Assembly (NCBI RefSeq): GCF_050920415.1
Contig: NZ_CP169309.1
From: Escherichia coli
GTDB taxonomy: Bacteria; Pseudomonadota; Gammaproteobacteria; Enterobacterales; Enterobacteriaceae
Reading direction: 5' to 3' (one strand)
Length of the DNA stretch: 64,000 nucleotides
The notes beneath the pieces were generated by a model. That model was given only the letters and a program-made list of their open reading frames with translations, ran no database searches and was not told the DNA's origin. The translations under genes and the position numbers were made by a program. How positions within the stretch are numbered: position 1 is the stretch's first letter; the number at the start of each line of letters is the position of its first letter. Positions 53,517 through 64,000 of the stretch are shown one piece after another.

Positions 53517-56500
53517 TTAATGGAAAATGACGTCAGGTGCGCTTAACGCTTCACTCAAATCAAACGTATCGAGTTCGGCAAAAGTGACAGATTTATTGTC
53601 ACGGTACACTCGAAGAGAACGGAAGCTCATTAGCGCTTTGCTATCAGCACTGTAGTGGTTAAAACCGGGTGAAAACTTAAGGACCAGCCGATACTCGCCC
53701 AGGTCATAGACACATGCGTCCTCAAAACCTGACTCCCAGCCTTTGTATCGCATTCCCATAAGTTGCCCAACGGTTGCGGATTTACCTTCCCAGCGAGTCA
53801 GGCTGTTACTGGCTGACTCGTCAGGTGTGAGCAGCACTGTGCGCCGCATCAACTGGCGAAAAGGCTGCATAATTTCGTAATCGGCAAAAACCTGTGCAAA
53901 TTCACTGCGCATTTCTGCTGTCATTTCTAACGGGTGGGCAATGCCAATCAGAGCATCCGCAGGCAGGTCAATTGGCTCATCTTGTGCGTTGCAGAACTCC
54001 CCCTCAGCGGCCACACGAAAGGCGTTGAGTAAACGACGCGGTTCATTTGCCGGATAAACCGCCCATATTAATCGCTGAGTAACCAGGCGAGTAAAGGGAT
54101 GATTAACAAACAGAGAATGAAAATCTGCCAGCGACCAGCGTCGGGTGGTGCGTAGGGCAGTTTCAAGACGCGGGAGCAGGTTTTTGCTCACCTGAGTGGC
54201 ATCTTTTTTTAGCCCTTTTAGTCGGGCCAGTGCCTCGGGCGCTTTCAGTTGATCGTCATCGGCGCGCAACCGGGGAACACTTTTCTGGCGAACGTTTTGC
54301 TGATCAAAGATAACCGGGTTGAGGTTTTCATCGAAGCGAACGGTAAACTGCCGGGGACCAAAATCAAATATCAACGCCTGCGGATCATCCAGGCCCAGTG
54401 TTGGGACTAATCTGTCCGCTAACTCTTCCTGGCTTAGTCCACGATTTTCTGCGACCACCTGAAGAAATTCCGCCGCGTTATCACGTAAGGGACGGGATTT
54501 CGCCCGTTGCGATATATGATGCAGCTGTATCAGTGCCATATCATTATTCATCTGAGTAAGTATATTCAGACCACTGACAGCACGGGCAGATTTGCCCTCT
54601 TGAGGCCAGGCAAGGATCTGTGTCGTCAGATTCCGAGCCGTGCTTTCGTCACCAAAGAGACTTAACGCCAAAAAAGCCCAGTTGTCTTTTGCGGGGGCGC
54701 CAGCCTGTTGCCAGGCGGTGAAGAGATCCCAGGCAAAAGCGGCCAGCGTTTGTGGCTGGCAGAACGTTTTCAGTTGTTCCAGCCCGCAATAAAAACGTCC
54801 GCCCTGGGTAAAGCGCAGCATTTCGCCAATAATTTCCAGAGCGTCATCAGTAACAGGTTGATTATTCGTGATAAGTCTCGGCCTGGACCACATTGCCGGA
54901 TGCCAGAAATCAGGGGCTTTGGGAATGCGTGCCGGGTAAATCTCTATTGGACTCTGTTTAAGTAATTGCTCCAGGGCAGGCCATACATCTGTACGCTGCC
55001 AACGATTGGCTACAGTTTGTAGCAATTCGCCATGTCCTTGTTCATACAGTAAACGCAGAGCATTGAGTGCCGCTTCGCTGTTATCGCCAGACCTGGCAAA
55101 GATTAATGGGATCAGCGCCGTAGCCGTATGCTCCGGCCATTGTAAAATCCACTGGCGAGCCAGATTACGCTGGCCCGCAAAACGATGCCAGACGCGGGCA
55201 ACGGGCAGCGCCAGTTCTGTTGCGCCAAAATGAATCAGCAGCGGAAATATCTCTTTGGGATGTCGGGCAAAGGCGGTGATTAATCCGGGCAAAGCATCGG
55301 TACCCAGCACACTTAACAGATATTCCACCCCGGTGTAATGAAAATCAGCCGCGACAATTTGTTGCCAGCACGATACTGCCATTTCGCGCGGCATTTGCGC
55401 GATAAGGTACAGATTCCACACTCCCCAACGCTTTTCATCAGTGTAATTAAATTTGCGTTGGAAAGTTCGCCACCCCTCCATCAACGCAACGCTATCTTGT
55501 GCCAGTAATGCGCTGGCGGCCTCTTCCCGGTAGTGTTTATTTTCAGTCTGTTTTGCCTGATAATTGAGCAATCTTCCTAATGAAGTATGTGTCTCTAGTT
55601 GATCGGTATCCAGAGCATCCAACTGTCCTGTGAGAATAAACTCATTAAACTTCCACCTGTGATCTTCAAAACCTAATTCCCGCAAGAAGGTATCGGTTCC
55701 TCTGCTAGCGAGACGTTCGTCAAAAGGCATGGCGCTAAAATGGCTGATTGTAGTTTGTTGTTCCTGCGTCCAGTGTTCCTGGGACGACCTGTACGCTTGC
55801 GGTACAAGCGTAAGTTCAGGTAGCGAAAAGTGAGTTATGGAAGTCTTTTTTCTGCCACGCCACGGTGGCGAAACGAGGATTTCAGGCAGACTGCTGTTAT
55901 CGGTGCTATCAATAACCGGTTTTGGCGAAGCCGATAAATAACTATTCACCACTGCCCGGGCTTGAGTACTTAACCACGGCATCACCTCTTCTGCCAGTTG
56001 TGGCTGCGATGCCATCAGCGTTTGTAACAGCGTATGCCAGTATTCATCACGTGCTTTTTGCTGTGCAGGCAGCTTTTTGTCTTCGATGATAGGATAACCA
56101 GGGCGCGCAGGGGGTTCTTTTAACGCCAGTAGTTCTGCCAGTGCGGCGAGCGTCGCATGGGGAAAGTTTTTACTGTATTTAGCCACACGTTGCAGGCTGG
56201 GTTTGTTTTTATCGGCAACTAACAGCAAGATGCGAATAACTTGCGGATGGTTAATTTGTACCAGCAGGCTACCGCAATCTTCTTTATGGGCATACATCGC
56301 GAGGCGTGGAACGGCTGCAATTCCCTGTTCGCGCAAAAGGGCGGCGCAGGCCGCGTAGCCGAAGTGGTTTTCATGCGACATGTAGCTGGCTTCGCGATCG
56401 CTAAATATATCCTGGCTCCAGTAGCGTTCGAGTTTTCTCACCGCTCTGGGGTCATTAGCAACAACTTTTAACCACTCCTTAGAATGAAAATGAGTCCGCG

Positions 56501-57167
56501 GGCATTCAAGGCCTACCAACTCATTGGCGATTTCTGGTTTCTCCGGGAGGATGAGTGCAATAAAAGGACGGCGAACTTTGGGTATTCCTGGCAGTGCGGC
56601 AATGAGTTTGTCGGCGCAACGCTGCCAGCAGCTTTCCTCTGCCAGAGAGAGATGCTTACGCAGTCGGAGATCGAATTCGTTATAGGTTTCTGAGCGATAA
56701 CCATAGCCATAACCATCGTCCTCGTTCTGATACTGCAATGTTACTACCAGAGGATCACTCTCATAACACCGTACAATAAACTGGCGTGCAATCACCACTT
56801 CAGTCGCATATTCCAGTCCCTCTTGTTGGACGATTTCATCGAGCAACTGTTGGCTATCATTTTGCGCGATACAGGCTAGCGCCGCCATTGTCCGGGCCGG
56901 AATTGAGGGGTTGTGCTCGCCTATCAAGTTGATGGCTTGCGTAATGGCCGACTGCCACTCCAGTGAAAAATTTTCATAACGCCAGACGATGTTTTTTTTC
57001 TTCTCAGCAATGTGTAGCAATTTATCACCCAGTGTCTGGATGAGGCTTTCAGTGATAACAGGCACCGGTTCGCCCGGCCAATTGCGATGGCTGAGTGGTG
57101 TTTTGCCTTTTTTATATTTCAGTTCCAGTTGGGCGTTATCCGCTAGCCACGGTAATTCCTTGTCCAT
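53517..57167 (-). CDS. yehI: Giant DUF4132-domain protein, 1216 aa
   Basis: Length (~1210 aa class), shared internal blocks with the upstream paralogs (e.g. '[22 protein letters not shown].P', '[9 protein letters not shown].E'; '[33 protein letters not shown]'). Confidence 0.8.
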   Translation of the reverse strand: [1216 protein letters not shown]

Positions 57168-63900: not shown

Positions 63901-64000
63901 GCATTGGCAATATCCGGGCGTTCAGGGAGCAGTAACGCGGCAAAAGGTTGCCGTGCTGGGGATAGCGTCGGAATAGCAGTAAGCACTTTATCCACACAGC
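60984..64000 (-). CDS. Third giant DUF4132 paralog, 3' portion (N-terminus lies beyond window end)
   Basis: ORF open to the window edge; near-identical blocks to the 1264-aa paralog ('[48 protein letters not shown]', C-terminal '[18 protein letters not shown]'). Confidence 0.75.
   Translation of the reverse strand, partial: [1004 protein letters not shown]

Follow-up and report, generated by a model that had tools for sequence, protein, structure and literature searches.

Giant WGR-DUF4132 proteins as the variable part of a conserved gene cluster with a MoxR/midasin-like ATPase in Escherichia coli

We analyzed a 64,000-nucleotide (nt) stretch of Escherichia coli DNA from contig NZ_CP169309.1 (below, the window), which ends in a tandem array of three giant genes on the minus strand, here called P1, P2 and P3. 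Comparison across bacteria showed that the DUF4132 genes, to which all three belong, are the variable-copy-number part of a conserved cluster, [WGR-DUF4132]n-YehL-YehM-YehP-YehQ. Judged from their sequences, the three genes of the window are ancient paralogs that have been maintained individually. The genes of the array and of the yehLMPQ cassette are the following.

53517..57167, minus strand: P1, which is yehI; 1216 amino acids (aa), without WGR, DUF4132 only by Pfam; the copy nearest yehL
57177..60971, minus strand: P2, the intact molR orthologue; 1264 aa (from the open reading frame, K-12 alignment, RefSeq name and AlphaFold2 models)
60984..64000, minus strand: P3, the third paralog; the window holds residues ~262-1265 of 1265
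51270..52358, minus strand: yehL, an AAA_5 (MoxR/midasin-type) ATPase (Pfam AAA_5, 2.6e-34)
48980..51259, minus strand: yehM, a DUF5682 protein (RefSeq annotation)
47851..48987, minus strand: yehP, a VWA protein with an intact metal-ion-dependent adhesion site (MIDAS) motif, DQSGS...GGGT...SD
45863..47854, minus strand: yehQ, a SWIM zinc-finger protein (by annotation; the Pfam SWIM match is weak, 3.6e-3)

The DUF4132 array and the yehLMPQ cassette

A scan of representative genomes with a trimmed 8-sequence alignment returned 78 loci, and 83 loci were counted in total. The scan reached Proteobacteria, Myxococcota, Actinomycetota, Desulfuromonadota and Acidobacteriota, with hits in Enterobacterales, Burkholderiales, Xanthomonadales, Neisseriales, Myxococcota, Mycolicibacterium, Trichlorobacter and Holophagales. 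Homologues of the cassette genes were found beside the DUF4132 gene or genes in 67/83 loci for yehL, 64/83 for yehM, 60/83 for yehP and 58/83 for yehQ. The cassette almost always lies immediately downstream and on the same strand (upstream in Burkholderia), and the loci without cassette homologues are mostly those at contig ends. The yehL and yehP genes are adjacent in at least 60 loci, and their products form an AAA_5-VWA pair with an intact MIDAS, which places them among the MoxR/AAA_5-VWA systems. The closest solved sequences to YehL are the AAA domains of midasin (2.9e-10); a sequence search of the PDB returned no solved relative of YehM. Most loci carry one DUF4132 copy per yehLMPQ set, two or three copies occur in Escherichia, Klebsiella, Duganella and several Comamonadaceae, and four to at least six are found in Massilia. 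Lone copies almost always carry a WGR domain, and many arrays close with a WGR-less copy next to yehL, like YehI.

The locus is the annotated metG–molR–yehI–yehK–yehLMPQ region of E. coli and as such is already catalogued. Read along the gene strand, the region runs metG, P3, P2, P1 (yehI), yehK, zor-orz, yehL, yehM, yehP and yehQ. The initial annotation, which was made from the sequence of the window, described three giant minus-strand reading frames 9-12 nt apart, the third cut by the window, and the frames and gaps (9 and 12 nt) proved to be as stated, with no internal stops, so that the 1264-aa frame is uninterrupted as claimed. An AAGGA-type ribosome-binding site abuts the preceding stop codon in each case, which suggests translational coupling of the array genes. 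RefSeq labels P2 a “WGR and DUF4132 domain-containing protein” and P1 a DUF4132 protein, called YehI in other strains. The nearest RefSeq record, E. coli MFDS1022581 (NZ_CP169399), differs from the window by 1 nt over 11 kb, a C/T difference at position 59000, inside P2. The N-terminus of the third gene, which the initial annotation proposed to seek beyond position 64000, was taken from this record, giving a full-length P3 of 1265 aa with a WGR domain (gene at 19985-23782 of locus L001).

The annotation of TG1, a K-12 derivative, marks the gene that separates metG from yehI as “frameshifted; internal stop” and gives an internal stop for yehQ as well. P2 aligns with the K-12 molR pseudogene at 94.4% nt identity with one indel and occupies the same position upstream of yehI; with this synteny and full-length high identity it is the orthologue of K-12 molR and, as had been suggested, its intact counterpart. 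The impression that an intact molR is unusual did not survive comparison, since full-length P2 orthologues of 1262-1264 aa fill protein clusters with thousands of members. Intact molR is ordinary in E. coli, and K-12 is the exception. Across a population set of 5426 complete E. coli genomes, the locus occupies a fixed chromosomal position in 5419-5421, and only P3 is variably present, being full length in 1629 genomes (30%), ST131 among them. Matches to the cluster were found in 31 of 72,556 plasmid records, and no homologues of the cluster proteins were found in 50,697 phage genomes. The PHROG families phrog_20839, 36602, 28101, 29006, 31592, 30700, 33984 and 36295 match Yeh and DUF4132 proteins near-identically (up to 1606 bits). 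A phage origin drawn from these matches was rejected on the absence of any homologue from the phage genomes, and the families probably stem from over-extended prophage calls, the matches being near-identical although no phage homologue exists in that set.

We compared the integrity of the array and the cassette in eight genomes. Broken genes were seen in K-12 (L002; molR and yehQ), O157:H7 (L084; P2, P3 and yehM) and 2015C-3101 (L088; molR and yehQ). The array and yehLMPQ are intact throughout in MFDS1022581, ECOD1, KO11FL and MY504, and ST131 18044 has three intact DUF4132 genes with yehLMPQ partly in view. Thus, yehM or yehQ is broken in all three strains with a broken DUF4132 gene, and the four fully viewed strains without one are intact; the window strain, too, has undamaged array genes, yehM and yehQ. 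This co-decay hints at a functional coupling of the array with yehLMPQ. The same pseudogenes, together with insertion-sequence and transposon insertions recorded in the region, are what would be expected if the genes were decaying remnants without a present function. However, the window strain and four more from the sample of eight keep uninterrupted frames of ~3.7 kb, the P2 orthologue clusters have thousands of members, the C-terminal modules show a ratio of nonsynonymous to synonymous polymorphism (pN/pS) of ~0.05-0.1, and the family and the operon are conserved across phyla. We consider plain decay very improbable.

Domain architecture and age of the paralogs

Pairwise BLASTP comparison gave identities of 37% (P2/P1), 45% (P2/P3) and 33% (P1/P3) over ~1000-1190 aligned residues, with E values from 0 to 2e-168, in agreement with the paralogy initially proposed. 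The WGR/DUF4132 architecture read from the sequence, including the WGR N-terminus of the middle protein, was also found by Pfam. In P2, the WGR domain (PF05406) covers aa 7-69 (1.8e-15) and DUF4132 (PF13569) covers aa 988-1173 (8.2e-51); P3 has both domains (3e-18 and 2.8e-51), and P1 has DUF4132 alone (6.9e-48). All three DUF4132 matches run from model positions 1-3 to 179 of 179, so that each protein is a full member of the family. The start of YehI aligns with residue ~110 of P2.

53736..54290, minus strand: DUF4132 of YehI, aa ~960-1144 (PF13569, 6.9e-48)
57453..58010, minus strand: DUF4132 of P2, aa 988-1173, within the conserved C-terminal module (aa ~700-1264)
61236..61787, minus strand: DUF4132 of P3, aa 999-1182 (Pfam, 2.8e-51)
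60765..60953, minus strand: WGR of P2, aa 7-69, with the core W-G-K-V-S-T-x-G-Q
57180..57242, minus strand: C-terminal tail helix of P2, with the invariant residues S1253 and E1254; 83% nt identical to the P3 tail

AlphaFold2 models of P2 were computed in two parts, aa 781-1264 with a mean predicted local distance difference test score (pLDDT) of 95.7 and aa 1-790 with a pLDDT of 84.6. In these models the WGR domain (1-66) is followed by a disordered linker (70-110), an alpha-solenoid (~175-940) and an alpha/beta module (~960-1264) with the tail helix at its end. The architecture is therefore a WGR domain, a disordered linker, an alpha-solenoid of ~600 residues, a C-terminal DUF4132 module and an invariant tail helix. 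A comparison of the modeled C-terminal DUF4132 module of P2 with the PDB gave no significant fold match, and Pfam and NCBIfam detected no helix-turn-helix or other transcription-factor domain in the three proteins. The tail follows a family-wide motif, LDxIxxSELIxDxExL, in which the Ser-Glu pair is invariant.

Clustered at 50% identity, the DUF4132 protein family counts 5934 clusters at E <= 1e-3 and 2664 at E <= 1e-30. By eye, the metagenomic member P0250 has an apparent N-terminal histidine kinase, with H-box and G-box motifs, ahead of the WGR domain, and the metagenomic P0222 apparently has two C-terminal DUF4132-type modules. The remaining long members owe their length to longer low-complexity linkers after the WGR domain. 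Informative domain fusions in the family are at present a weak lead.

To date the paralogs relative to one another, we used nucleotide identity, codon identity and a neighbour-joining tree of the C-terminal modules. P2 and P3 are ~85% identical in nucleotides over the first 60 codons (the WGR segment), 30-55% in the middle and ~65-74% in the C-terminal third. Synonymous differences are numerous throughout, and only ~40-70% of the shared amino acids are encoded by identical codons. A repeat search found no direct repeats above 83% identity between the copies. In the tree, every E. coli copy pairs with the Klebsiella copy at the same position, the single-copy Erwinia gene falls beside the P2 clade, and the Massilia arrays group by position across species. 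Since the copies group by position, the triplication is older than the split of Escherichia and Klebsiella.

These data bear on the possibility that the array is a recent tandem duplication whose copies are kept alike by ongoing gene conversion, which the initial annotation had raised. It draws support from the WGR-coding 5′ ~190 nt, where P2 and P3 are alike and where informative sites show a patchy exchange between copies and strains. In the molR gene of MY504, which has two copies, 16 consecutive informative sites (nt 5-110) are of the P3 type, and P2-type sites begin at nt 156. The 5′ ends of molR in K-12, KO11FL and 2015C-3101 are patchy mosaics of P3 and P2, and P3 of the window holds some P2-type sites. 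The informative-site comparison limits the exchange between paralogs to this segment. Outside it, nucleotide identity is 30-74%, with about 70% in the most conserved third, and the sliding-window nucleotide and codon identities, together with repeats of at most 83%, rule out conversion across the gene bodies. The matching C-terminal tails, which had been reported for two of the proteins and were seen in P2 and P3, do not stem from conversion either, as they represent the family-wide motif with its invariant Ser-Glu pair. Each copy, moreover, has its Klebsiella orthologue. Exchange is thus real in the first ~190 nt, but conversion as an account of the array as a whole is extremely improbable. 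The mosaics are most simply read as traces of recombination between the ~85%-identical WGR repeats, by which three-copy loci became two-copy loci. Such recombination would have joined the promoter and first codons of P3 to P2, which would make the “molR” of K-12 a P3::P2 hybrid.

Polymorphism and predicted SOS control in E. coli

To locate the variation within E. coli, we compared pN and pS between the window strain and ST131 and K-12. The metG and yehL genes gave a pN of 0.002-0.008, a pS of 0.14-0.20 and a ratio of nonsynonymous to synonymous substitution rates (dN/dS) of 0.01-0.04. In the C-terminal ~500 codons of P1 and P2, pN was at most 0.06 and pS 0.06-0.34. For the C-terminal ~560 codons, including the DUF4132 module of P2, pN was put at 0.02 or less, and the pN/pS of the C-terminal modules (~0.05-0.1) indicates strong purifying selection. 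The C-terminal part of P3 is a bit less constrained than those of P1 and P2, with a pN of up to 0.08. The variation is concentrated elsewhere. Codons 1-700 of P2 showed a pN of 0.13-0.35 and a pS of 0.53-0.83 against ST131; codons 401-700 of YehI a pN of 0.21-0.45 and a pS of 0.55-0.88 against K-12 and ST131, with a pN of at most 0.06 in the flanks; and codons 501-700 of P3 a pN of 0.11-0.26 and a pS of 0.59-0.69. Because synonymous sites are saturated, we make no claim of positive selection.

55068..55967, minus strand: hypervariable central cassette of YehI, codons 401-700; a rare allele in the window
58872..60971, minus strand: dimorphic N-terminal 700 codons of P2; GC content 0.44-0.46 versus 0.55-0.56 in the 3′ part

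The YehI cassette is 53% identical in amino acids to that of ST131, against 93-96% elsewhere in the protein. It is ~50% identical to the common E. coli alleles, about as distant as YehI of Klebsiella, and at least 80% of its length could be aligned in only 48 of the 5426 genomes. The K-12 cassette shares 84% identity with its E. whittamii counterpart and ~50% with the window allele. On these sequence comparisons, the allele classes do not track the species tree. In a search with the P2 segment 58872-60771, ~4077 of the genomes reached an identity of 90% or above, and 1283 lay at 60-80%. The GC shift inside P2 (~58900) coincides with the allele boundary and with the border between the conserved module and the dimorphic part. 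Such a pairing of a constant with a highly polymorphic module would suit a protein in which a conserved interface, for docking or for the engine, is joined to a variable part that sets specificity. The earlier suggestion of diversified recognition modules thus gains ground at the level of alleles, in the variable N-terminal and central parts, but not as a recent or fast-evolving duplication, given the Klebsiella orthologue of each copy.

A LexA-box-like site, AACTGGATATAAATACAGGG, which agrees with the consensus at 15 of 20 positions, lies 8-28 nt upstream of the P3 start codon. It maps to 23792-23807 of L001, ~790 nt past the end of the window; P3 likewise has its start codon and WGR domain beyond that end. 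The regulatory signal of the array is invisible in the window for this reason. Sites scoring 12-13 were found at the same place in K-12, in another Escherichia species and in two Klebsiella loci, and only 28 sites scoring 12 or more occur in 1.53 Mb of fetched loci. The promoter region with the LexA box, downstream of metG, is common to K-12 and the window strain. The molR gene has been on lists of LexA-regulated genes since 2000. A known SOS box is recorded for it in a published list of genes regulated by LexA (PMC6590174). The box and this published listing together make the array of this strain a predicted member of the LexA regulon. The DdrO radiation/desiccation regulon of Deinococcus includes a gene for a DUF4132 protein and one for a WGR protein. 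The Xanthomonad, mycobacterial, myxobacterial and Geobacter-type SOS motifs were absent upstream of the genes in those lineages. SOS control as a trait of the whole family was rejected, as boxes were confined to Escherichia and Klebsiella.

Between the array and yehL lie two further features.

53139..53456, minus strand: yehK, 105 aa, between the array and yehL
52469-52544 (minus) and 52790-52879 (plus): zor-orz type I toxin-antitoxin locus, a single copy in the yehK-yehL gap

Among the fetched loci, tblastn matched yehK only in those of Escherichia. The OrzO-P antitoxin RNA was identified by Rfam (98.9 bits, E 8e-16), with a 29-aa reading frame, MDTLTQKLTVLIAVLELLVALLRLIDLLK, on the opposite strand. 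Fozo et al. reportedly described zor-orz in 2010 between yehI and yehL in O157:H7, as a locus absent from MG1655. A TTG-initiated reading frame of 181 aa (57976-58521, plus strand), which has no RefSeq annotation, lies on the strand opposite the conserved, GC-rich stretch of P2 and has most probably arisen by chance. The core flanks (metG, apbC, yehL and yehD) differ from K-12 by 3-5% of nucleotides. Synonymous divergence in metG and yehL is 0.15-0.23 against K-12 and ST131, which lies above what we would expect for two E. coli strains. Identity of at least 95% over the 11 kb was found in only 15 of the 5426 genomes. Either the isolate comes from a divergent or rare lineage, it seems, or the region was imported by recombination.

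Proposed function and comparison with known systems

The proteins had been described at the outset as functionally uncharacterized, and in the literature we found no functional studies on DUF4132, on DUF5682, on yehI/K/L/M/P/Q or on the combination of WGR, SWIM and VWA. By analogy, we suggest as a possibility, held somewhat short of probable, that the DUF4132 proteins are interchangeable, nucleic-acid-binding and SOS-induced adaptors or client scaffolds for a MoxR/midasin-like YehLMPQ engine. In such a mechanism, they would serve the YehL ATPase machine as exchangeable parts. The conserved C-terminal module would dock onto YehP and YehL, with the invariant tail glutamate possibly acting as the MIDAS ligand at YehP. 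The WGR domain would tether the scaffold to a nucleic-acid structure, for example a nick or a DNA end, and the polymorphic N-terminal and central solenoid would pick the target. Hydrolysis of ATP by YehL could then remodel or free this target after DNA damage, and each paralog and each allele class may have a separate specificity. More broadly, and as a tentative proposal about which we remain doubtful, the cluster may be a distinct, phylum-spanning machine in which a split midasin-like AAA+/MIDAS engine works with giant, polymorphic, nucleic-acid-tethered solenoid adaptors. It would then be a hidden arm of the E. coli SOS response, either in damage surveillance and repair remodeling or in SOS-coupled immunity, with paralogs and alleles differing in target.

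Several observations weigh against this proposal. Docking and the adaptor or client role are modeled on midasin-Rsa4/Ytm1 and CbbQ-CbbO. The 78 scanned loci lean toward close relatives of the query, and the co-decay was seen in a tiny sample of eight genomes in which kinship was ignored. No yehLMPQ genes were found near three distant family members within the flanks available, and a few DUF4132 copies are solitary (L054, L064, L066, L072 and L076). In E. coli, the distance from the array to yehL is ~1.1 kb, filled by yehK and zor-orz, which makes co-transcription of the array and yehL doubtful. Finally, E. coli-type LexA boxes were absent from at least 60 loci outside Escherichia and Klebsiella. 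With boxes in these two genera only, a role in DNA damage is perhaps a local regulatory add-on.

Much of the same architecture would also serve an immune function against phages or mobile elements, with the DUF4132 paralogs and alleles as its diversified sensors and YehLMPQ as a signaling or effector engine that the SOS response triggers or boosts; the two readings overlap in structure and differ in purpose. Deep allele classes and mosaic cassettes in the solenoid, set against a conserved C-terminal module, are consistent with immunity, as are the recurrence of sensor-like tandem expansions in several lineages and the frequent independent pseudogenisation (K-12, O157:H7, 2015C-3101). YehL weakly matches the bpMoxR family of predicted MoxR-vWA conflict systems (E 0.0021), and a type I toxin-antitoxin locus lies nearby. 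On the other hand, none of the eight proteins (three DUF4132 proteins, YehK, L, M, P and Q) matched a PADLOC-DB v2 model, and no nuclease, protease, NADase or pore-forming effector domains were detected. The fixed chromosomal position is neither patchy nor island-like, the tree suggests mostly vertical inheritance, and the counts for phage genomes and plasmids given above are nil and low. We judge immunity unlikely, if worth keeping in view beside the adaptor proposal.

The name of molR suggests a third function, namely that MolR is a transcription factor of molybdate metabolism and that YehI and P3 are related regulators. Some sources indeed use “molybdate metabolism regulator” or “MolR family transcriptional regulator”, and WGR has been taken as the DNA-binding domain of “MolR-like TFs” (PMC7824862). 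But molR is a pseudogene in K-12, the proteins are solenoids of 1200 aa without a helix-turn-helix or other transcription-factor domain, and the genes conserved beside theirs encode an AAA+ ATPase and a VWA protein and are not molybdenum genes. In Deinococcus, induction of DUF4132/WGR genes was accompanied by no change in the expression of moeA or moeB. The link to molybdate, which the initial annotation carried over into a proposal for transcriptomics, is one of an old gene name, as nothing in the analysis ties the locus to molybdate, and we give this function almost no credence.

One reason that molR has been left without an assigned function is that molR and yehQ are pseudogenes in the laboratory strain K-12. 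The intact genes are members of a very large family and lie in tight linkage with a MoxR/midasin-like ATPase-VWA pair; they also combine a conserved docking-type module with a deeply polymorphic part, and all this makes the adaptor proposal a testable one. Strains suited to its study are E. coli W/KO11FL, ST131 or the present isolate, rather than K-12. The region also has practical weight: the “metG/DUF4132/yeh region” of ST131, with three DUF4132 genes, is a recurrent chromosomal insertion site of the blaCTX-M-15 transposon (PMC9334617). Since the locus itself was already known, the remaining interest is in the uncharacterized system as a whole.

Compared with known systems, the closest likeness is to the molR/yehI locus of K-12, which has the same position, 94.4% nt identity in molR, 88% identity in YehI and the same LexA-box region. 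The window differs from it in having an intact molR, an extra P3 between metG and molR, and the rare YehI cassette. The WGR domain is shared with the PARP family, but the DUF4132 proteins have no ADP-ribosyltransferase domain, and their WGR is joined to a solenoid by a disordered linker. The ternary systems of MoxR, vWA and beta-propeller proteins resemble the Yeh cluster in combining a MoxR-type ATPase and a vWA protein with a variable third component; the bpMoxR match of YehL is below significance and extends over 52 residues only, and no beta-propeller partner was noted in the Yeh cluster loci, the flanks of which were not scanned with profile models. RavA-ViaA, CbbQ-CbbO, NorQ-NorD and Rea1/midasin share with the cluster an AAA_5 ATPase (here YehL) beside a MIDAS-bearing VWA protein (here YehP). 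We saw no known metalloenzyme or ribosomal client for the Yeh cluster, which supplements the pair with DUF5682 and SWIM proteins and with giant WGR-DUF4132 scaffolds, from one to several per locus.

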